NCBI GenBank assembly: GCA_951406725.2
Contig: OX597828.1
Span: 19,840,001 to 19,904,000, forward strand
DNA length: 64,000 nt
Reading direction: 5' to 3'
Origin: Octopus vulgaris
Lineage: Eukaryota
Shown here: in pieces, positions 1,394 to 62,610 of the stretch
How the letters are laid out: each line of letters begins with the position of its first letter
Position numbering within the stretch: the first letter of the stretch is position 1
The notes under the pieces: model-generated
Databases searched by the model: none
What the model was told of the DNA's origin: nothing
Seen by the model: only the letters and a program-made list of their open reading frames with translations
Position numbers and translations under genes: made by a program

Positions 1394-3064
1394 CATATAA
1401 ATCTGTTTTAGTACATTAGAAATCATATTGTAGTACAAGTGAAGCAAAACATTTGAGCTTCGAGTGAGTAAATAGAGACACGAGTTCGTATTCTTTCATC
1501 ATGCTGAAGGTACTTAATATTTGGCTCCGTTTAAGTATAAGTTCTACAAGGGGGAATAAATCGTATGGTGGAAGCAATATAAAATTGATGAGAGATATGT
1601 TAGCTCTTATTGTGTGGAGCTTAGTTCTTCGCGTAGAAATTAGTTACATGTCATACACTTGTCTCTCATTGAATTAATGTCAAAGGCTTTGGAGAGGATT
1701 TGTTATTGAAGGGGCTGGACCAGATAAAATTAGGATTCATAAACTATGCTCCCTTTAGCCCGGGAATTTATAAATAAATAATATCGATATAAACCCTAAT
1801 TTTTATCTATTGAGGTGTCACATAAAATCGTTATTTTTAAAAATTTAATCCATTGCAATTTTATTTGTATTAACACAAAGAATATTTTCACCATAGCGTT
1901 TTATAGTCGTTTTATCGCTCTAGTTTTGCTCTAGAACTTTTGCTTCTTGTTTCTGGAATTTGAATAAATTCTTACCTCTTTTCAGAAAATACGATATTTG
2001 ATAAACTAATAGTGAAATTGGTGCTACCAATTGTCCAAGCCCAACCATTAATGTAACTGAAATTAAATCCATGGTAAGGAGGAAAAGATCCGTCATTTTA
2101 ATGATTATTCTGATTAAAAAATGCATTGGAGATAACTCAGAAATTTAAATTGACAAAAAATATTTAGTAGTGCGGAGGGAATGTGATCTTTGGTGAGAGT
2201 GAGGTGACAACAACTGACATTAGAATATCGCAATTGAAGTAGCGGCAAAGCACTAAAACTTGAAACCAGTTCTCGAGTAACTGCCCCAGTAGCATTGTTT
2301 CTTTCATTTCAGGAAATCCTTTCGTTGTACATCAATTTCCTTTCATAAACCCTCTATACAATATTTGTTGGTCGGCTCTTACATATATTTTTTTTATCTG
2401 TCCTCTTATTTGTTCTGCTTTGTGAAAGGGTCACCCGATTTTATTGACGCAACTGAGATATAGCTAAACGTCGACGGACAATCACCATTGTTTCGGATTC
2501 TGAAGGAGGTGTACTCTATTATTAGTTGGCCTTTGAGTTCAGGTGGAATATAAACTTAGAACGTAATGATTAGACACGATAAAACTCTCCTCCTATGCCC
2601 TGGAATGGTACTTTATCGACACTTGTGAAAGAGAAGAAAGTTGACTTCTGTAAGATCTGAACACACAATGCAAAGAGCCGAAAGAGACGCTGCAAGGTAT
2701 GCCGTCATACTCTCTTATGATTCCACCAACTTCATCGGCTCTTGAGAGAAAGACAGAAAAATTTAACCTCGGCGAAATTTGAACACAGAATACAAAGTGC
2801 TGGAAGAGATACCTCAATGTCTCCCTTCTTATATTTTAAACAATTCCGCTAATCTACCAACCTCAAATACTATTTTATTTCCCTTTTTTGAGAGAAAGAA
2901 AGATAAATTTAGTCTCGAAGAGATTTGAACACAGAATGCAGAAATACTGTAAAGAAGTGTTTTAACCCACGTTCCAGTGACTCAGCTAATTCGATACTAT
3001 TTTGAGGGCAGGGTCCTTAGTCTGAAATCACAAATTCATCTAGAGTTATAAAGTGTCCACTTAC

Positions 3065-3539
3065 CTTGTGCAAAACTGTTAAATTTGCAAAAGAAAGCGC
3101 CCAAAACCCAGTCTTCGTTTAAACTGGAAACCAGATGTACCCATGAACAGGATAAGGTGACAAGAAGATCCGATGCTGCTAAATTCACTATGTAAAAATT
3201 GGTGGTCGTCTGCATTCTAGTGTTTGTGTAAACCACTGCGATTACAAGACAGTTTCCGGCAGTCGCGAGAACTATAACAATAACATAGAATAATGTTTTT
3301 ACTATAATTTCCCATAGTGGAAATTTCTTGAGTTCTCTGGGATAAGGTATATTTTCCAGGTAACTTGTATAATCAGTGCTTCCGTTGATATTCTCGGTTA
3401 TTGTTTCGGATAGAGAATATGACATACCTGCTACGCTAGTGACATCGTTGAATGGAGTTATGTTCCTTTGTAGAGCTCTCGTTGATATACTGTAAACCGT
3501 GCTCAACGTTGGTATGATGTCTTTCATGGCAACAGCCAT
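3065..3539 (-). CDS. First coding exon of a class A (rhodopsin-like) GPCR, neuropeptide-receptor type (N-terminus, TM1, TM2, start of TM3)
   Basis: ATG at 3539 in good context (acaATGG). N-glycosylation sequons (NIT, NGS), TM1 GN..VI, 'RMQTTTNFYIVNLAASDLLV' (TM2 LAxxD), ECL1 'WVLGAFFCK'. Exon ends CAAG|GTAAGT (phase-1 donor at 3064). No downstream exon found in 1-3060. Confidence 0.92.
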
Positions 3540-4051
3540 TGTTGACAGGATATTTGGTTTGATCTGATTGTATTTTATATATAAAAAAAATGGATGTATT
3601 TTTATACAAAAGACAATAAAAGTGATAACAATATTATTATCAATAATAAGAATGATGATAATAGTATTTTTTTCAGATTTTTTGTTAAACTCTTTCCATT
3701 TAAAGCTCAATTTTTGTATTTTTTTCTTTTTTAGCAGCAATAATCTTTTTTCAATGCTAATAAAACCATATGGATTTTGTTGTTCCGATAAGAATGAGTG
3801 GAGAATCAGTCTGGAATTACTGGAAATGTTGTCAGATGACAGCGGATGCTTCAGAGGAATATATATTTATGGCAACGGAAACTGGAAAAAAGAAGAAAAA
3901 AAAACGTAAAGAAAATGGAATGTTGAAAAATATAAACGATAAACAAAATAATTACAAAAATAACATAAAAATATCAAGGTTAACATAAACAATTAAATTT
4001 ATAGTCATAAAAATATGTTAAGCAATAAATCATACTGATATGAAAAATCCG

Positions 4052-10296: not shown

Positions 10297-10490
10297 CATG
10301 ATGGATCGCTAGTCACTAAACCTTTTTTTTATTTTCTCCCTCTATTTTTTTCTGTATTCCTTTCTGTTGAAGATTTAGGCTCGAAACGTAAAAGACTTTC
10401 TCACTTCCCGAGCGTTAAACTAATGCATCTTTTGTTGTTTACACACCCGTTTTTGTCTTTTGTTTTGTTTGTTCTTTTTGTAAATTCCAA

Positions 10491-12150: not shown

Positions 12151-13296
12151 TTGGTTAATGGACTAACTTAACTGGAAGCTGGCTAGCAGTTATAAACGTG
12201 TGGATTACAATGGTTATTCAGCATCAGAAATGAAATTGGTTATGTAATGATGTACTTAGGGATATGTAATAAGTATTTTCAAGTACGTTTTGTATAATAC
12301 AACATTTTGGAATAATTTAGTTAGTTACATTATACAAGGAGTTGTGTATTTATCTTTGCTGTATTTTCTACGACTTGTGATTTCTGTGGAATACTTTAAA
12401 CTTTTATGCACACATTTAATTATGCTTATCGTGAATGTATATAGTTGAATATAATGTGTTTGAAGTATGATTAGTTACAAGCTAATACTGCTGGAAATTA
12501 AGAAAAAAGCAAAAATAAAAGGAACTCAGTACATTTATTTCGGTAAATATTTAATATATTTCGAGAACTTCTTACGCGCCAGTTACTTTAAATTCAGCCT
12601 CGCAACATTAATTGTAGAAAGCTCCACAGGAATTAGTCTTATGCTACAAGGACAAAAGAGACTGACAATCACCGTAACATTATAAGAAGTAATAAGATAA
12701 TTAAACATATATTTTTATATGACCATATTCGATATTTATAATTTCCGTTTATTCATTTACCACAGACAATAATGATAGTGTCAAGTAATTTCTATTTAGT
12801 GCAAGTTACTTTTATGAAAAAATGCAAATATTGGTTGTACTAAGATGTTATTTGTAGGCTTTGCGTATCTAAACTGCGGGAAGGAAAAACGTTTACTTGA
12901 GAAAACTTTTAATTATCATTAATTATTATAATATGCGTGTGCTTGTGTATGTACCATACATACATACATACATACATACATACATACATACATACATACA
13001 TACATACATACGTACGTACATACATATATACATACATACATACATACATAGGTACATACATACATATATACATACATACGTACATACGTACGTACGAATA
13101 TATATATATATACATACATACATGTTATGGTATATGTATCAGACAGACAGATAGGTAGATAGATAGATAGACGGATAGATAGGGAGACAAACACATAGAT
13201 AGATAGGCAGATAGGCGGACAAACACATAGATAAAAGGATAAATAGACAGAGACAAGCAGACAGATAGACAGACAGATAGATAGATGGACAGACAG

Positions 13297-13342
<46 letters not shown>

Positions 13343-13376
13343 TAGATAGATAAATAGATAGCTAAATAGATAGATA

Positions 13377-14752
13377 AGTTTCTTTATTGGCCACACAGGG
13401 CTGCACACAGATGGGACAAGTTACAAGGTAGAGCTTTTTTCTTTTGGGGGATAAAGAGAACAAAAAACAAAAGAAAAAAAAGGGGGTGGCGTAGGTTTTC
13501 GATCAAGAGGGATCGTAAAAGGGAAGAAAAGAACAAAAAAAAAATTGAATAAAATAAAAAGAATAAAAAGAAAAAAAGAAAAGGAAAAGGAACAAAAGGA
13601 AAGAGAAATGAAAAAAGAAGAAAAAAGGGGAAAAAAAGGGGAAGAGGAAAAAAAAGAACGATCAATAGGGATCGTGTATCACAGTGTTATGATATATGGT
13701 GTAAAGAGGAAAGCAAGTAAGGTTTATCTGTGGGAAGAAAAGCCTACGAAAAAGACCACGGTAACCTTGGTCAATATTGTTATATGTTACCACATTTGTT
13801 TGCAAGTGGGTAACCCTCTGTTTTCAATTTCTGGGTTCATAGGATTATGCTCAAGGTGGCTTCGTCATTCATACGTGCCATCCTTGCTACATTCACCCAT
13901 CTTTTTTTAAAACATTCGCTAGACAAAACTTGCCTCTCTACTCTCACTTTCCTTTTCAAGTGGTACTTGAAGAAGTTGATGAGAGATTGACCAGAGAGGA
14001 AAGTGTTTGTCTCCAATCCTTTGAGACGCGTCCACCAGATACATTCTTTCGCCATAGCCACAAGGATGATGAAAATAGCTCTTCCTTCCCGTTTGAAGGA
14101 AGGAGGCGTGACAATATTGACGATAGACTCAGCTGATAAACCGACTCGTCCCACACGTGACAGCAGTTGTTCGACATAAGCCCACAGGTCGGAAATTGTT
14201 GGACACTGCACGAGTGCGTGCAGAACGGTTTCGTCGCTCTGACCGCATCTCGGGCAGGTCGGCCCCGTGTTTCTCGAGCCGTGTCTGTAGAGCTTATCCC
14301 GAACGAGTAGCGCTTCTCGGTAGCACTGCCAGGCCAGGGATCTCTGGAAGTTGTCCATGGGCCCTGGCCCGAAAGTCGTCCTGAACAGGCGGGTCAGGTA
14401 CTCCTCGTCGACGTCCAGGTTCGCCCCGAGCTCGTCGTCGTACCTCCCTCCACTAATCCCCTATAGAATGCTTTGGTTGTGTTGAAGTCACTCAAGGTCG
14501 ACCCGGGACGGCAGAGTTGCTTGAGAGCAACGCGACACTCGCGGTGCCAATCGCCCTTCCTCGGCCTCTTTTTGATCCACGACTGCAGTTCGGTCATGGA
14601 GACGAGCTGCGGGAAAGCGTGCCTCACAAACGGCGACCACACCTGTTCACCGTCGTCTACATAGAGCCAGAGATGTCGCAGTCTCAGCGCGTGTCTGCGC
14701 ATCATCAACCACGGCATGCCCAGCCCTCCTTTTAGCGGGTGTTGACAGCAGT
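13377..14752 (-). mobile_element. 5'-truncated Tx1/L1-like LINE, same family as 176-1162
   Basis: QHPLKGGLGMP motif, zf-RVT-like region near-identical to copy 1, frameshift near 14445; 3' end abuts (GATA)n on the plus strand. Confidence 0.85.
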
Positions 14753-23409: not shown

Positions 23410-23546
23410 TTATTATCTCGTGTTCCTTTGTATTGAAGAGCGTAGGCTCGAAACGCAAAAGTTTCTCACCTTCCCGAGCGTTAAACTAATACACCTGTTT
23501 TTTTTATACACTTGTCTTCGTCTTTTGTTTTTTGCAGGTTCCAACT
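23410..23546 (+). mobile_element. Short PLE terminus, degenerate hammerhead
   Basis: tgaagagcgtaggctcgaaacg...ttcccgagcgttaaactaatac...gtcttcgtcttttg, followed by (TA)n. Confidence 0.7.
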
Positions 23547-25614: not shown

Positions 25615-25662
25615 AGACACCTGATGAAAGCTGAAGGGTATATCAGCCGAAATGTTGTGTTT
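25615..25662 (+). ncRNA. Minimal type I hammerhead ribozyme motif with canonical core, in a PLE-like terminus (~25570-25738)
   Basis: Stem I agacac / gtgttt; core CTGATGA; stem II gctga / tcagc; GAAA then tgtt (probable CpG decay of the palindromic ACGT stem III). Confidence 0.65.
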
Positions 25663-31131: not shown

Positions 31132-31137
31132 AAAGAT

Positions 31138-31230
31138 GTTTACAACACGTAAGTTTCCCAAGCGGTCACCCATCTAAGTACTAACCTGGCTTGACGTTGC
31201 TTAACTTTTCAACGTGATATGGCCGTAAAC
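31138..31230 (-). pseudogene. 5S rRNA pseudogene with an internal deletion of about 25 nt
   Basis: Minus strand: GTTTACGGCCATATCACGTTGAAA[del]AGTTAAGCAACGTCAAGCCAGGTTAGTACTTAGATGGGTGACCGCTTGGGAAACTTACGTGTTGTAAAC. Matches both ends and the internal control region of invertebrate 5S; 93 nt instead of ~119. Confidence 0.88.
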
Positions 31231-32740: not shown

Positions 32741-32829
32741 ATATAAAATATAAAATTCAAAATTTAAAATATTTAAATTAAAGTTAAAATTTTAAAAATT
32801 ATGTATGTGTGTGTATATATTTATATTCA

Positions 32830-33013
32830 CCATGATAGATCGCTAGCCACTACTCATACTTTATTTTCTCTCCTTGTTTCTTTCTGTGTTACTTTCTGTG
32901 GAAGAGCGTAGGCTCGAAACGTTAAAGACTTTTTTTACTTCCCGAGCGTTATACTAATACATCTGTTTGTTGTCTACACCAACTGTCTTCGTCTTTTTTT
33001 TGTGAATTCTCAC
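32830..33013 (+). mobile_element. Short PLE terminus with hammerhead motif (32892-32929)
   Basis: cttt-CTGTGGA-a-gagc-gtag-gctc-GAAA-cgtt-aaag; ends at (TA)n. Confidence 0.8.
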
Positions 33014-33033
33014 TATATATATATACATATATA

Positions 33034-33118
<85 letters not shown>

Positions 33119-33119
<1 letters not shown>

Positions 33120-33304
33120 GGGAGAATTCACAAGAAAAGACGAAGACAGTTGGTGTAGACAACAAACAGGTGTATTAGTGTTAACGCTCGGGAAGTGAAA
33201 AAGTCTTTAACGTTTCGAGCCTACGCTCTTCCACAGAAAGTAACACAGAAAGAAACAAGGAGAGAAAATAAAGTATGTGCAGTGGCTAGCGATCTATCAT
33301 GGCG
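33119..33304 (-). mobile_element. Short PLE terminus in opposite orientation, hammerhead motif at 33203-33240
   Basis: Near reverse complement of 32830-33013 across a (TA)n spacer. Confidence 0.8.
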
Positions 33305-33311
33305 AATATAA

Positions 33312-33371
<60 letters not shown>

Positions 33372-44389: not shown

Positions 44390-44818
44390 ATAGTAATAAT
44401 AATAATAATACAAGCGAACACACATACAAGCGAACACATAACAAAGAATTTAGAATCATAAATATCTCCAATTTTGTGTGAACAGTCTGCCGTCCCTTCT
44501 TTGCCTTTTATTGTAACAACACAATTAAATGCACGATAAAAAACTATGGAAGTAAGCGTATACCAATATATATACACTGCACAACTACAAAAACTGTAAA
44601 CCACAGCATAACTTTTAAACTTTTAAAAAGAAAAGAAAAATTTTCTGAGCATTCGAAAATGTAAACATTCTTCCCTTTGCAAAAATTTTATTTTTTTTTC
44701 CAAACACAATTGAACTCAGAAATTAAAAGAAAAAAAAATCATCGAGTGAATATCAGAAAATATGCGTGTGTGAATATACATATATATATACATATGTGTA
44801 TAGGTATATATATATATC

Positions 44819-46890
44819 GGGAAGCTTTATGAAAATAAACAAAAGACGAAGGCAGGTGGAAAACAAACGAACAATTGTATTAGTATGGCGCTCAGGAAAT
44901 ATAAATAAAACAAGTCTTTAACGTTTCGAGCCTACGCTCTTCAACAGAAAGATACACAGAGAGAGAAAAACACAGAAAGAAGGAGAGAAAAAAATGCGTG
45001 CAGTAGCTAACGAATCAACATGGCGATCTGATTTCGGCCAGAGGTCAAAGATCAAACATGAGACGCGAGAGCGAAATAAGGGGAGATAATAGGGTTGATA
45101 AATGGGTTGAGGGACCAGCTAAAAGTGCGTGGGAGGGGTCTGGATGTGTGTATGTATAGGGTTGGTGTATGTATTAGTATGTATAAGGGTGTGTGTGTGT
45201 GTGTGTGTGTGTATGAGAGAGTATTAGTGCGTAAGATTGGTCTGGACGTGCGTATGTATGGGGTTGGTGTATGTATTAGTATGTATTAGTATGTATTAGT
45301 ACGTATTGGTATGTATAGGTGTGTGTGTGTGTGTGAGAGAGAGTATAAGTGCGTATGAGAGGTCTGGACGTGTGTATGTATAGGGTTGGTGTAAGTATTA
45401 GTATGTACTAGTATGTATTAGTACGTATTAGTATGTATTAGTTGGTGTGTGTATTAGTATGGCACATCATATGTGATGTGATGTGTAAAGTCATGTGGTG
45501 TAGTGAGGAGAAGAGGGGGAGGGGGAGAAGGGGGGAGAGAAGGGGAGGGGAAGAAGAGGGGGAGGAGAAGGGGGAGAGGAGAGGATGGGGAGAAGGAAGG
45601 GGATGAGGGGGATGAAGGAGGAAAGAGGGAGAGGGGGAGAGAGGGAGTGAGGGAGCAGAGGGAAGGGGAAGAGGGAGGGAGAAAGAGGGAAGAAGGGAAG
45701 GGGAGTAGGGGTGAAAGGATGAAGGACTGAAGAAGTAGGGGTCGGGGGGAGAAAGGATAGGTGAGGAGGGGGAGAGGGGGGTTAGATGAGGAGGGGGGAG
45801 AGTTGAGACCAAATGGCGTATAAGAGCGAAGAGAGAAGATTAATTCCTGTTCACGGCGCAAACGGGAATCCGGATGGCCTCTGTGTAAGGACAAACCGAA
45901 CACAGATAGGTGTTGCAAGGAGTGACCGGTGGAGCGGAAATGGCGTGAGACCGGTGTGTCGTTCGCAAGGTGGATGTCACGAAGGTGTTCCGCGAACCGG
46001 TCAGCCAAGCGGCGTCCCGTTTGTCCGATGTACAAGGAATTGCAGAGAGAGCAAGAGATGCAATAGATAATATTGCTGGAGGTGCAGGTGAAGGAGTGGA
46101 TGATGGGATAGGGTCGATGGTGGGTGCTAGTGAGGCGGGTGGTGTTGGAGAGGTAAGGGCAAGTGCGGCAACGTGGGCGGGAGCAGGGGAACGAGCCGGG
46201 TTGGGAGGTAGGGTCAGGGAAGGAGCTATGGACCAAAAGGTCTCGAAGGTTGTGGGCTCGTTTGAAAGAGGGGAGGGGTCGGTTAGGGAAGAGGTGTGAA
46301 GTGGACGGGTCGGACTGGAGATGACGGAAAGCTCGAAGAATGGTGCGTTGGAGACGTAGGGTCGTGGGGTGGTAAGTGAGGGGAAAAGGGAGGCGGGAGA
46401 CTACAGGGCGGGTTCGGGGAGAGAGAGCAGATACACGGTCCACGGACCGTGCTCTGGCAAGGGCGGTGTGGATAGTGGTGAGGGGGTATCCACGTAGGGT
46501 GAAGTGGTGAGCCATACGTTGAGACTGAGTCTCAAAGTCATGGTCGTCACTACAGAGCCTACGTAGACGGAGGAATTGGGAATAGGGGATGGAAAGCTTG
46601 GTGTGTTCTGGGTGGGAGGAAGAGAAGTTGAGGTATGAGTGTGAGTCTGTGTGTTTGTAGTGAATGGAGGTGGTAAGAGTGGAGTGAAGAATGCTAACCG
46701 AAATGTCGAGGAAGGAGACAGAGGTGTTGGAGATAGTGGAAGTGAAGTGGAGGGCTGGATGGAAAGATTGGACGAAAGAGAGGAAGGAATCTAGATGTTC
46801 GCGGGAGAGTGAGGTGGCACCGATAATGTCGTCAATATAACGACCATATAGTTCAGGAGTGGGACCAGTGAAATTAGAGAATATTTGGGC
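44819..46890 (-). mobile_element. 5'-truncated Penelope-like element (RT C-terminus + GIY-YIG endonuclease + 3' terminus with hammerhead)
   Basis: Open frame from ~46890: YGRYIDDII, FLDISV, SSHPEHTKLSIPYSQFLRLRRLCS, CSRPRCRTC, FTCTSSNIIYCISCSLCNSLYIGQTGRRLADRFAEH, R.RREQELI...PFGLN. 3' end abuts (TA)n. Confidence 0.92.
44914..44952 (-). ncRNA. Minimal hammerhead ribozyme-like motif with variant core CUGUUGA
   Basis: Minus strand: UCUUU-CUGUUGA-A-GAGC-GUAG-GCUC-GAAA-CG-UU-AAAGA. Stem I and stem II pair perfectly; stem III is the palindrome ACGU with no loop. Confidence 0.7.
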
Positions 46891-47199
46891 ATATAGCTGG
46901 ATTGCTTTTCAAGATAACGCTGGTACTAGTAAACAGGTTTGACCTTTTCCTGACCCAAAATGTCCTTTGTCCACCATCTGATGAATCTATTTATAGAACA
47001 TGACCACTCTACCGTGGTGATGGTGATAGTGAGAATAATAATAATAATAAGCTACCGCTGTGACTACACATAAAACAATGTCATTGATGATGATGATGAT
47101 GACAGTGATGACAGTGATGATGATAATTCTTATTTTATATTTGTTTATTATTATTATTTTTTTTTTCTCGTATTTTATTCTCATTTTTTCGAACTAATA

Positions 47200-50100
47200 C
47201 AGGGAGAGTGAACCTTTCATAAGTTTAAAGAAATAAATGAATAAATAAATAAAAAGAAGGGAAAACTATGCCCGGAGATAAAACTATCAACAAAAAAAAT
47301 ACAGACGAATACAGATCTGCTAGCCTAAGGAAACTGCGCTACGAACAATGTTTACGTGCAGAAAATCCTAAACTGACAGATCCGTCTCTTAATGTAAGAG
47401 TCGAAGCTCGTCATGCTTCAATGTCAACAAAACAACCTACAATCCGCGATGGTCGACGAGCGGACTACAAAAGACCACGTACCCGAAAATTGAACCAAAG
47501 TCTGATTGAAAAATCAGCTACTGGATCAAATCTTCCCGACACACAGGAGCTGGACGTACCCCGCAACTGGAATATTCCAACAGATGGTCATCCATGCTCG
47601 TCACCAAACACTCAAAAGAAAAAGAAGGAAAAATGGACTAGGGAAGATAATAAAGAAGTTCTTGCAGCCTTCTATCATGCCATATATTTCCCCACAGATA
47701 AATCGAACACTATACAAACCTACATAAACTGGAGACAGAAACACCCTGAAGTAAGGCCCTACATAGACAGTAACAAACTTGCCAACGTCAGAAGAAACAT
47801 TATAAAAAAAAAATTACTGACTGAAGTAGAGATTGAACAAATTAAACAAGCAGTAACGGATAGAATGAACGAAGCTGCAGCTAAAGAAGATAATACAGAG
47901 GAAATAATTATAGACCAGCTCAGAGCTAATACAAACGAAGTAAGGATTGAAAGAGTTAGTATAAGTGCTAGGCAAAGTGAAATACTCCCTGAACCAAATA
48001 TAAACACTAAGACAGATGAACATCAAAGAGATGAAGAAAGTCACACAAATATTGACCCGACAGAACTACATGAGCTAAAAAGTCAAATCATGATTGAATG
48101 GATGAAAATTAAAGAAACCAGTATGGATGAACGTGATACACTCCCTAAAATACGCAAATCTAACCAAAACATGAAAATAATTGGTAAAATCCGGCTTGCA
48201 CTTAAGGATATAATTTCAGCTAATGATGTTGATATCACAGATCTCAACCACCTATACAATACATCCGCGAAAATCTCAACGATCCTATGTGGTGAAAAGA
48301 TTAGAAAACGGCAACATTTCCACAAAAAGCCTTCTTGGCAAGAGCGTTTGCAACAACAAATTAAACTATTTAGATCTGACATTGAATATTTGAAAAACCT
48401 TAAGGTTCATAAGACTGCCAAACTTGCAAAAACCCAAAAACTAATGAAAAAATATAATATGAAAACTATACTTGATATTGATGCCACCATAGAAACCATC
48501 AAGCAAAAGGTATCTGCTAAAGCTGCCCGCATAGCGAGGTATGAAAAGCGTATTAGATTCTTCAGGGACAACAACATGTTCAAAAATAACCCCAAACATT
48601 TTTACAGGAAGATAGGAAAAACAACAGTTACTGTAAAGTCTGTACCATCGAAAGAAGAAGTGCAGGGATTTTGGAATAAAATTTGGGCAGAAGAAAAAAC
48701 ACACAGCGAAAAGGCCCCCTGGATTGATAGAATATCTAAAGAACTGGACTCCTTAGAAGAGCAAAAGTAGGAGGGTGTCAAGGTAGAAGATATAAGATCT
48801 GCTCTCAGGAGGTCAAGCAAATGGAAGTCTCCAGGAAAGGATAAAATCCCTAACTTTTGGTTGAATGCCTTCCCAGAGAGCCACGAACTGCTAGCAGAAC
48901 TTTACAATGATGTTTTGCAACCCTTGGCTAGTTAATGGGTTAACATTCCTGCTTCCAAAAAGTGAAGAAACAAATGAACCCAAAAACTATAGACCCATAA
49001 CCTGCTTAACAACTATGTATAAAACACTAACATCTGTCCTGACGGAATATACTTATAGTTTTTTGACAGACAGCAGCATATTCCCTAATGAACAGAAAGG
49101 ATGTAAACGTGGATCCTACGGTTGTAAAGATCAACTACTCATCAATAAGATGATCTTAGAAGATTGTCACAAACGACACAAAAACTTATCAATAGCCTGG
49201 ATAGACTATAAAAAAGCTTTTGATAGCCTACTACATAGCTGGATTAATAAATGCCTAGAAATGTATAAGATAGCACCTGCTCTGCGAAACTTTTTGTCTG
49301 TAAGTATGAGATCATGGAGAACCACACTAACTTTGAACAGTGACAATGAATCTCTAAATGCTGGTGATGTAAAAATTTCATGTGGCATTTTCCAGGGTGA
49401 CTCACTATCACCGCTCCTCTTCTGTTTAGCCTTAATACCTCTCTCAAAACTGCTCAATGACGCGCAGTACGGATATAAAATGTTTGATAAAAATATAAAT
49501 CATCTCATTTACATGGATGATTTAAAGCTCTTTGCAAAAAATGACCAACAACTCAAGGGCTTACTAGCGATTGTCAAACAATTCAGTGATGACATCAGAA
49601 TGCAATTTGGCCTCGATAAATGCGCAAAAGCTACCTTTATCAAAGGAAAAATGACAGAAACATCTAACGTTAACCTTGACCAGCAGAATGTCATAAAAGA
49701 ATTAGACCCAGCAGAGAACTACAAGTATCTAGGGGTAATTGAAGGAGAAGGAATAAGGCATTCAGAGATGAAGGAAAAGATCAGGAGAGAATGCTATCGC
49801 AGAGTAAGAGCAATACTCAAGACAGAGCTGAATGCGAGAAACAGGATCGAAGCGATCAATGCATTAGCCATACCAGTCGTGTCTTACAGTTTCAGTATCG
49901 TTAACTGGTCAATTACTGAAATATGTAATCTTGACAGAAAAATACGAAAACTGTTGACAATGCATAGAATGCACCACCCTAAGGCAGATACAGAACGACT
50001 TTATCTGGCAAAAAAAGAGGGAGGCCGTGGACTTTTACAACTGGCAATAACAATGAAGATTACTACAATTGGCCTAGACACCTACCTGAAAAACTCTGAG

Positions 50101-51259
50101 GACTGGATGTTAAAACTTGTCTCAAAACATGAAAACAAGAAAGCATCATACTCAGTAACAAAACAGGCAAAGGAATATCTAAGTGAATTCCGAATACAAC
50201 AAATTTCGGAATTAGAGATAGGCATACAAGAAACAGGCACAGAAAAAGCTAAGCGCATGAAAACCCGTGCTAAATCTGCGGCCTTAGATATTCTGAATGA
50301 TAAATGGCAAGAAAAACCTCTCTATGGCAAATACCCAAAGAGAGCAAATAATGCAGATGTTGACAAAGCCCTGACCCATCAATGGCTGATGGCCTCTGGC
50401 TTAAAATCTGAAACAGAGGGGTTTATCATAGCAGCTCAAGATCAATGCCTACCAACAAGAAACTACCAGGCCAACATATTAAAGATCAGAAGCAGTCCAA
50501 CGTGTCGTGTATGCAAGCAACAAAATGAAACCATTGACCATGTGGTCTCCAAGTGCAGTCTTCTAGCGCCTACAGAGTATCTCAACAGGCACGATAGAGC
50601 TGCACAATATATTCACTGGGTAATCTGTAAAAACCTGGATTTGCCCCATGAAAAAAACTGGTGGGAACACAAACCACCCCCAGTGCTTGAAAATGACCAC
50701 ATCTCACTCCTCTGGAACTTCACCATTCAAACTGACAGAAAGATAGATGCAAATAGGCCAGACATCATATTGAAAGACTTCAGACAAAGAACATGCCTCC
50801 TCAAACGTATCTGTCAAGACCTACCAAAAACTGAGCAAATATAAAGATCTTGAAATAGAAATCAGCAAAATGTGGAAGCTGAAGACTAAAACAATACCTG
50901 TTGTCATAGGTGCCCTGGGAATGATAGCAAAAGGAGCTGATAGCTACCTAACTCAGATACCAGGAAACCCAAAAATGGCAGAAATTCAAAAGAGGGTGCT
51001 CATGGGAACTGCTCATATCCTACGCAAAATACTTTCTATGTAATCTCAAGGTTTAAAACAAACATAATTTTCGTTTTAAAAAAAAAACAACAAAAAAAAA
51101 CTTTTTTTTTTAGACATTCATTAGTACAACACCCCCACCCCCCAAATATATGGCACACTAGGCATAACAACAACATGAACTTCCAACCCTGTTGTCTCTT
51201 GAGGTCTCTGGGTGAGACTTGGAGCCAACTTGTACAAATATAAAGCAAAAGTCAAACAT
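47200..51259 (+). mobile_element. Near-full-length R4/Dong-like non-LTR retrotransposon (single ORF, RT + CCHC + REL endonuclease), inactivated
   Basis: ORF from 47268 (KWTREDNKEV), premature TAG 48768-48770, frameshift/deletion near 48920. RT motifs NYRPITCL, WIDYKKAFDS, GIFQGDSLSPLLF, YMDD; CRVC..ETIDHVVSKC, RHD, RPD. Deletion near 50803, then KYKDL..IPVVIGALG..LRKILSM* (51043). 3' UTR followed by (TAA)n. 5' boundary approximate. Confidence 0.9.
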
Positions 51260-59856: not shown

Positions 59857-60903
59857 TCTCAAGCAACTCTGCCGTCCCGGGTCGACCTTGAGTGACTTCA
59901 ACACAACCAAAGCATTCTATAGGGGATTAGTGGAGGGGAGGTACGACGACGATCTTGGGGCAAACCTGGGCGTCAACGAGGAATACCTGACCCGCCTGTT
60001 TGAAACGACTTTCGGCCCGGGACCTATGGACAACTTCCAGAGATCCCTGGCCTGGCGGTGCTACCGAGAAGCGCTACCCGTTCGGGATAAGCTCTATAGG
60101 CATAGCTCGAGAAACACGGGGCCGACCTGCCCGAGATGCGGGCAGAGCGACGAAACCGCTCTGCACGCAATCGTGCAGTGTCCAGCAATTTCCGACCTGT
60201 GGGCTTATGTCGAACGACTGCTGTCACGTGTGGGACGTGTCGGTTTATCAGCCGAGTCTATCGTTAATATCGTCACGCCACCTTCCTTCAAACGGGAAGG
60301 AAGAGCTATTTTTATCATACTTGTGGCTATGGTGAAAGAATGTATCTGGTGGACGCGCCTGAAAGGATTAGAGACAAACGCTTTCCTCTCTGGTCAATCT
60401 CTCATCAACTTCTTCAAGTATCACTTGAATAGGAAAGTGAGAGTAGAGAGGCAAGTTTTGTCTAGTGAATGTTTAAAAAAAGATGGGTGAATGTAGCAAG
60501 GATGGCACGTATGAATGACGAAGCCACCTTGACTATGATTCTATGAACCGTAAAAATTAATACAGAGAGTTGCTTATTTGCAAAAGAAAAGAAGAAATAT
60601 AACATGTGACTTCCTTGACCGAGGTTACCGTGGTCTTTTCCGTAGGCTTTTCTTTCCACGGGTAAACCTCACCTGTCCTCCCTTTTACACTTCATATTGA
60701 CATTTCTGTGATAACGATCCCTATTGATCAATTTTCCCCCCCTTTCTCTTTTTTTTATTCCCCCCTTTTTTTGTCCTCTTTCTTTCCCTTTACGATCCCT
60801 TTTGATCGAAAACCAAACCCCCTTTTTTTACCCCCAAAAGAAAAGCTCTACCTTGTAATTTGTCCTGTCTGTGTGCAGCCCTGTGTGGCTAATAAAGAAA
60901 CAT
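59857..60903 (+). mobile_element. 5'-truncated Tx1/L1-like LINE flanked by (TCTA)n on both sides
   Basis: ORF 59888-60490 closely similar to copies 1 and 2; same 3' end ctaataaagaaacat. Confidence 0.88.
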
Positions 60904-60904
60904 G

Positions 60905-60989
<85 letters not shown>

Positions 60990-62399: not shown

Positions 62400-62610
62400 C
62401 GGGAGGCTTTATGAAAATAAACAAAAGACGAAGGCAGGTGGAAAACAAACGAACAATTGTATTAGTATGGCGCTCAGGAAATATAAGTAAAACAAGTCTT
62501 TAACGTTTCGAGCCTACGCTCTTCAACAGAAAGATACACAGAGAGAGAAAAACACAGAAAGAAGGAGAGAAAAAAATGCGTGCAGTAGCTAACGAATCAA
62601 CATGGCGATC
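62399..62610 (-). mobile_element. Solo PLE terminus with hammerhead motif (62496-62534), within (TA)n
   Basis: Nearly identical to 44819-45030 (two differences seen by eye); (TA)n on both sides. Confidence 0.88.

Follow-up and report, generated by a model that had tools for sequence, protein, structure and literature searches.

On the minus strand of the window (the whole 64,000 nucleotide stretch of Octopus vulgaris DNA that was analyzed) is a truncated copy of a Penelope-like element that carries a small ribozyme motif near its 3′ end. The copy contains a 5′-truncated open reading frame (ORF, 45454–46908) for the C-terminal part of a reverse transcriptase (RT), a CX4CxxC linker, and a GIY-YIG endonuclease, and this ORF ends ~500 nt upstream of the motif. 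The intervening stretch (44953–45453) is a 3′ untranslated part or pseudo-LTR, and in a full copy of the element (L143) it also lies just before the upstream motif. The motif itself (44915–44952) has the sequence of a minimal type I hammerhead whose core position 6 is U (U6). The remainder of the element 3′ end follows (44818–44914); young copies end ~102 nt past the predicted cut, in (TA)n (28/28 of those printed).

A preliminary description had placed a minimal hammerhead at 44914–44952 with no strand given; we confirm the motif and place it on the minus strand. Stem I has five base pairs (5′ arm 44952–44948, 3′ arm 44919–44915). The core C3 to A9 (C3 U4 G5 U6 U7 G8 A9) occupies 44947–44941, followed by a single extra A (44940) between A9 and stem II, a four base pair stem II with a GUAG loop (44939–44928), and G12 to A15.1 (GAAA, 44927–44924). 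The next three letters, CGU (44923–44921), are part of a palindromic, loopless ACGU, and H17 is U (44920). Based on hammerhead numbering, self-cleavage is predicted to occur after GUU, between 44920 and 44919. The nucleotides C3, U4, G5, N7, G8, A9, G12, A13, and A14 are all kept, and U replaces the expected A at position 6 (44944); because of this replacement we consider the motif a hammerhead variant rather than a canonical member. Both features of minimal hammerheads, an unpaired nucleotide between A9 and G10.1 and a G10.1–C11.1 pair, are present. The register is fixed by the four-way variation of the position after U6. In the alternative register, with the core three letters later (UUGAAGA), this variable column would coincide with U4 and no closed stem II would form. 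Rfam gives no hammerhead match on 44860–45000, and no hammerhead is among the 150 of 533 Rfam matches listed for the whole window. The isolated motif folds modestly better than shuffled sequences (z −2.2, 5/200), and its predicted minimum free energy structure is not the open hammerhead.

Several sibling motifs occur in the window. A short stub from the same young subfamily carries an identical U6 motif (62497–62534, minus strand), and U6/G7 motifs of an older subfamily form the left and right arms of an inverted pair (32891–32928, plus strand; 33204–33241, minus strand). The two stubs of this pair (32800–33330) surround a (TA)n tract and make a long, perfect-looking hairpin. A copy at 10359–10395 (plus strand) is decayed: the 5′ arm of its stem II is broken and it has A17. 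U6 had been reported as common to five sites, and all five have it, including the decayed one. We also found a sixth copy, missing from that list (23425–23462, plus strand), which retains U6 and is decayed, with C3, G5, and U16.1 altered. As had also been claimed, the C3–G8 pair and the loopless palindromic stem III are retained.

Other parts of the window are unrelated to the motif. A different retroelement, with RVT_1 and zf-RVT domains in its second frame, adjoins the truncated Penelope copy (47253–50844, plus strand). A 5S rRNA-like sequence with an internal deletion scores above the Rfam gathering score and adjoins a dispersed repeat (31137–31230, minus strand); it is possibly a 5S-derived SINE. 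There is a rhodopsin-family GPCR exon (7tm_1; 3036–3866, minus strand), and fragments of another repeat, ~90% identical and with a coding remnant, are found at 1–1296, 13238–14526, and 59857–60989.

The element is young, as had been proposed, and it is coding-intact. Over 370 amino acids the window ORF is 100% identical to many genome copies, and all 109 matches that were scored, from 24,990 first-look candidates, are 98–100% identical and without stops. Young pseudo-LTRs have a mean identity of 99% to the window copy (47 matches). The open ORFs of full elements encode 1,115–1,214 amino acids, and the first likely start codon in L143 is ~730 nt downstream of the cut. Ten long regions, two of which overlap, show how full elements are arranged: seven have a motif, the ORF, and a second motif, with the motifs 4.47–4.57 kb apart, the other three have the 3′ motif only, and two contain tandem arrays. 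All 17 motifs listed in these regions are identical. Pfam gives no match on the truncated ORF piece by itself (45454–46908). The full ORF matches RVT_1 (E 2e-7, above the cut-off) and GIY-YIG (E 0.008, below the cut-off), and a CX4CxxC motif lies ahead of GIY-YIG in the protein P0001. Homologues of the full ORF are 40–62% identical, and many of them carry RT and GIY-YIG domains. The tandem or partial-tandem arrangement of pseudo-LTRs and the inverted truncated copies are as expected for an EN+ Penelope-like element. By the sequence features set out in Craig 2021, the element is an endonuclease-bearing Penelope-like element, putatively of the Neptune or Nematis type. A contig search found near-identical sequence under four organism labels, none of the data sets listed for it is registered as RNA, and putative RNA contigs, which carry no end or strand information, cover the motif stretch. 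A metagenome scan gave 0 matches.

The preliminary description took U6 for a family trait, and the genome-wide counts bear this out. Leaving positions 6 and 7 free in an otherwise exact context gives 15,703 matches in the genome (0 for the reversed motif, so the matches are not due to chance), of which 15,153 (96.5%) have U6 and 159 (1.0%) have A6. U6 therefore dominates, and the family's genome-wide consensus is not A6. The other 391 have C6 or G6 (87 C and 13 G among 100 listed). There are 278 matches with a non-U letter at the invariant U4, so A6 is at about the level of post-insertion mutation, with C6 in some excess. We considered the decay of an A6 family and rejected it: A6 makes up 1.0%, and its ratio to G6 (159 to ~51) resembles that of A to G at U4 (~106 to 33, from 50 C, 38 A, and 12 G among 100 listed of the 278). 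When positions 6 and 7 are masked, the 32 A6 rows require 23 changes on a tree that omits 35 near-duplicate young rows and four sister-family rows, so the A6 copies are mostly scattered. One group (6/7 rows, support 85/93) hints at a distinct ancestral A6 clade, which we do not uphold, as the old subfamily to which it belongs has only 6 A among 100 listed. A comparison across other organism labels tabulated no change at position 6, yet the known N7 variation was also missing there.

The old subfamily (706 matches) is more variable, with 78 U, 15 C, 6 A, and 1 G at position 6 among 100 listed. At three other T columns the background is 0 C and 2 A in 87 cells, counted in the first 29 loci, which themselves are without C6. 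This excess of C6 above background suggests that position 6 is relaxed rather than dependent on U. C6 and A6 rows are unclustered on a poorly resolved tree of this subfamily. C6 is unevenly distributed among the listed copies (2/50 on contig C1, 12/41 on C2, and 1/9 on C3 of G000).

The genome also contains A6 hammerhead families. With stem II left free, the U6 pattern has 23,163 matches, essentially one family, and the canonical A6 pattern, which differs slightly from it, has 14,287 matches, mostly from two other families. One of these two is an A6 sister family with the same stem II arms, a three nucleotide loop, and a swapped stem I pair (L063, L065, L072, L076, and L078); it is a natural control for the U6 family, although no ORF was found for it. 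In the window there is a slightly decayed minimal hammerhead with the canonical A6 core and a long stem II (25616–25660, plus strand), from another family that is common genome-wide. Two U6 copies (G000 C1:3779214 and C1:4092822) share an altered stem II with a UUCG loop and are perhaps a small separate subfamily.

Constraint on the motif was evaluated in 92 copies within the initial 11 Mb of a single contig, which were selected through a flank motif ~65 nt downstream and not by the ribozyme; 72 of these span the motif. U6 is present in 67/72, A15.1 in 70/72, and U16.1 in 71/72 copies. N7 takes all four letters (29 U, 23 A, 13 C, and 7 G), and H17 is A or U in 68/72 (56 A and 12 U), so the motif has the A15.1–U16.1 pair and H17 of a hammerhead. 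Genome-wide, the exact pattern with C17 or G17 has 215 matches (an absolute number rather than a fraction). N7 and H17 are the only non-CpG motif columns that vary between subfamilies; other departures, including those in ACGU, are scattered or CpG-type decay. Variable columns number 0/29 among constrained positions and 13/58 in the flanks (Fisher p = 0.004, from few substitution events in related subfamilies, with the 72 copies coming from one chromosome arm). The chance that two variable core columns would coincide with the two free positions is 1 in 78, given 13 core positions. ORF remnants beside older copies share only 54–90% identity with the young protein, so conservation of the motif is long-standing. 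Because its variation is confined to N7 and H17, we interpret U6 as a lineage trait under hammerhead-type constraint and not as decay.

Covariation, which the preliminary description had looked to as a further check, is nearly absent. Stem II shows none within the U6 family, which has essentially one stem II sequence (23,163 matches). Across 11 hand-picked rows, 98.9% of cells in stems I and II are paired and one of eight pairs is doubly changed, solely between families; this is a compensatory change in stem I relative to the A6 sister family. Overall, the pattern of constraint favors a working hammerhead architecture.

Predicted folds indicate how U6 may affect the motif. U6 allows U4-G5-U6 to pair with A15.1-C15.2-G16.2, giving a rod with a predicted energy of −10.2 kcal/mol vs. 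−7.8 kcal/mol for the open form. The predicted probability of the G5–C15.2 pair is 0.44–0.98 in natural U6 motifs and 0.01–0.10 in natural A6 motifs, with the highest probability of the inactive rod in the youngest subfamily (P 0.98). Some natural A6 motifs misfold in other ways, so the rod is not evidence specific to a switch. The minimum free energy cofold of two motif copies is an extended inactive duplex; the program does not score the active dimer. A block ~25 nt past the cut (44888–44896, minus strand) repeats the stem II 5′ arm and is conserved in both the U6 and sister families. The downstream GAGC block was rejected as a rival stem II partner (predicted probability 0.015).

The copies themselves give information about cutting. 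The whole uncut motif is present in 72/92 copies, so the template for most insertions was either uncut or re-joined. Among 27 distinct truncated loci, six 5′ ends are within ~2 nt of the cut, a count confounded by TA microhomology, three are at the A13–A15 run, and many are at downstream TA-like spots, with no clear pile-up. Copying that starts ~102 nt past the cut, together with the retention of the whole motif in most copies, fits the model for an anole element in which uncut RNA is the main template.

With moderate confidence, we propose that the motif is a damped ribozyme, likely assisted by dimer formation and protein. Damping by U6 is proposed because published changes at position 6 slow hammerheads and because U6 favors the predicted rod. 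In this model, two motifs separated by 4.5 kb on a tandem transcript would pair through their ACGU palindromes to form stem III. U6 would weaken the uridine turn and would also let the monomer adopt a rod in which ACGU is hidden. Most of the RNA would stay uncut, and reverse transcription from ~102 nt downstream would copy through the motif. Cutting would be rare, carried out by the dimer-assembled ribozyme with help from the element's protein, and may occasionally trim long tandem transcripts. Several results count against this model: truncated 5′ ends show no clear pile-up at the cut, stem II does not covary within the family, the constraint test draws on few substitution events, all single mutants of the CUGA turn region had low activity in Roberts 2023, and hammerhead mutants of the anole element still inserted in vitro. 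The preliminary description had offered either a functional A6U hammerhead or a damped fold kept for another purpose; the evidence leans to slow but selected catalysis.

The main alternative, possible but less likely, is that the motif no longer cuts and its fold is kept for a non-catalytic job, such as protein binding, RNA pairing via ACGU, or the start of reverse transcription. Position 6 belongs to the catalytic turn and looks relaxed (C6 in 15/100 listed copies of the old subfamily vs. 0/87 T-to-C elsewhere), the predicted inactive rod is strongest in the youngest subfamily, most copies hold the motif uncut, and the anole element inserts in vitro with no need for cleavage (PMC11167929), all of which speak for this alternative. 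Against this, the catalytic G8 and G12 are kept along with C3, U4, G5, A9, A13, and A14 despite deep divergence of the ORF, and variation is limited to precisely the two columns that catalysis leaves free. The amplified subfamilies have A or U at H17, not G, and a mere binding site need not obey the NUH rule.

We regard as distinctly less likely a stronger version of damping, in which A6U evolved as an off-switch that pairs the catalytic strand with the dimer palindrome and keeps the RNA whole until the element's protein or Mn2+ opens the rod. If this were true, the most numerous hammerhead family found in the genome would be a regulated, non-consensus ribozyme that is invisible to standard descriptors. 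Slightly less probable still is an efficient ribozyme in which the element's protein, or an altered metal preference such as one for Mn2+, makes up for U6 inside the cell. With Mn2+, A6C hammerheads do cut well (that of phage Bcep176 at 0.31 per min in 1 mM, PMC7151607), and U6 persisted through several expansions with no A6 sweep, given the scattered A6 rows; however, the core and stems show no compensating change, inserted copies come mostly from uncut RNA, and truncated 5′ ends show no clear pile-up at the cut. A neutral relic, or an element acting at the DNA level (e.g., part of a pseudo-LTR promoter), carried by a successful source lineage is a highly improbable reading of the motif: few source lineages mean few independent events, further short flank blocks are conserved too, and stem II lacks covariation, but the constrained columns are less variable than the flanks, variation falls on N7 and H17, and stem I pairing is preserved by a double change relative to the sister family.

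Returning to the damped ribozyme, its features can be compared with those of known systems. The consensus of minimal hammerheads in metazoan Penelope pseudo-LTRs is CUGANGAH, and U3–A8 is the sole core change named in the available part of that paper (Cervera and de la Pena 2014, PMC4209133). The octopus motif is like these in being type I with a stem I of four to five base pairs, an extra nucleotide between A9 and G10.1, and a G10.1–C11.1 pair. It also shares their loopless palindromic stem III and the occurrence of one motif per flanking repeat, with most copies single and truncated. Unlike them, as far as they are described there, it has U6 family-wide and a stem II of four base pairs. Small Penelope hammerhead variants cleave as dimers (Lunse, Weinberg, and Breaker 2017, cited in PMC6765202), and the motif described here is like those variants, as that article presents them, in its short palindromic stem III, proposed dimer cleavage, and association with Penelope.

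The host element is like the Neptune and Nematis EN+ elements (Craig 2021, PMC8557442) in its RT, CX2-5CxxC linker, C-terminal GIY-YIG domain, pseudo-LTR tandems, and microsatellite targets; the linker is a Neptune feature that is common to Nematis too. The CUGANGA descriptor used in that study would miss the U6 core. Such descriptors can thus miss the largest family, with 23,163 matches to the U6 pattern vs. 14,287 to the slightly different A6 pattern. The main text of a recent annotation of octopus repeats makes no mention of ribozymes. No natural A6U hammerhead was found in the literature that our search covered, which did not take in the Lunse 2017 catalogue, Cervera supplement file 1, or bioRxiv supplements.

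In the Anolis Poseidon element, protein is required for hammerhead cleavage, and the template is mainly uncut RNA (Frangieh 2024, PMC11167929). Reverse transcription starts inside the RNA, downstream of the ribozyme, and hammerhead mutants are unimpaired for insertion in vitro. In the octopus element, too, the minimal hammerhead motif lies 5′ of an internal point at which reverse transcription would begin, with uncut RNA as the probable template. The Poseidon ORF begins inside the ribozyme and no change at position 6 is reported in the accessible text, whereas here the start codon is well downstream of the cut and position 6 is U. The question of why Penelope-like elements keep hammerheads arises because their cleavage is slow in vitro and insertion in one reconstituted system could do without it. 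The U6 family and its A6 sister in one genome are a naturally matched pair, with which to ask whether selection acts on catalysis or just on the fold.

The closest precedent for a natural pyrimidine at core position 6 is the A6C hammerhead of phage Bcep176, with a kobs of <0.1 per min (Perreault 2011, PMC3088659) and a rate of 0.004 per min in 1 mM Mg2+ (Naghdi 2020, PMC7151607); slow cleavage in Mg2+ is thus the measured behavior of Bcep176. In the portion of Roberts 2023 available, all single mutants of the CUGA turn region have low activity, and a second change gives no rescue, with the exception of the C3/G8 swap. Bcep176 differs from the case described here in having C6 in a single phage example that acts as a monomer, whereas U6 occurs in a eukaryotic, dimer-type motif with >15,000 copies. 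Minimal dimer-type Penelope hammerheads, the U3–A8 variant, and the phage A6C were already known, and family-wide A6U appears to be new within the literature covered: an intact and very recently mobile family appears to have altered a supposedly invariant core letter long ago and kept every other hammerhead rule.
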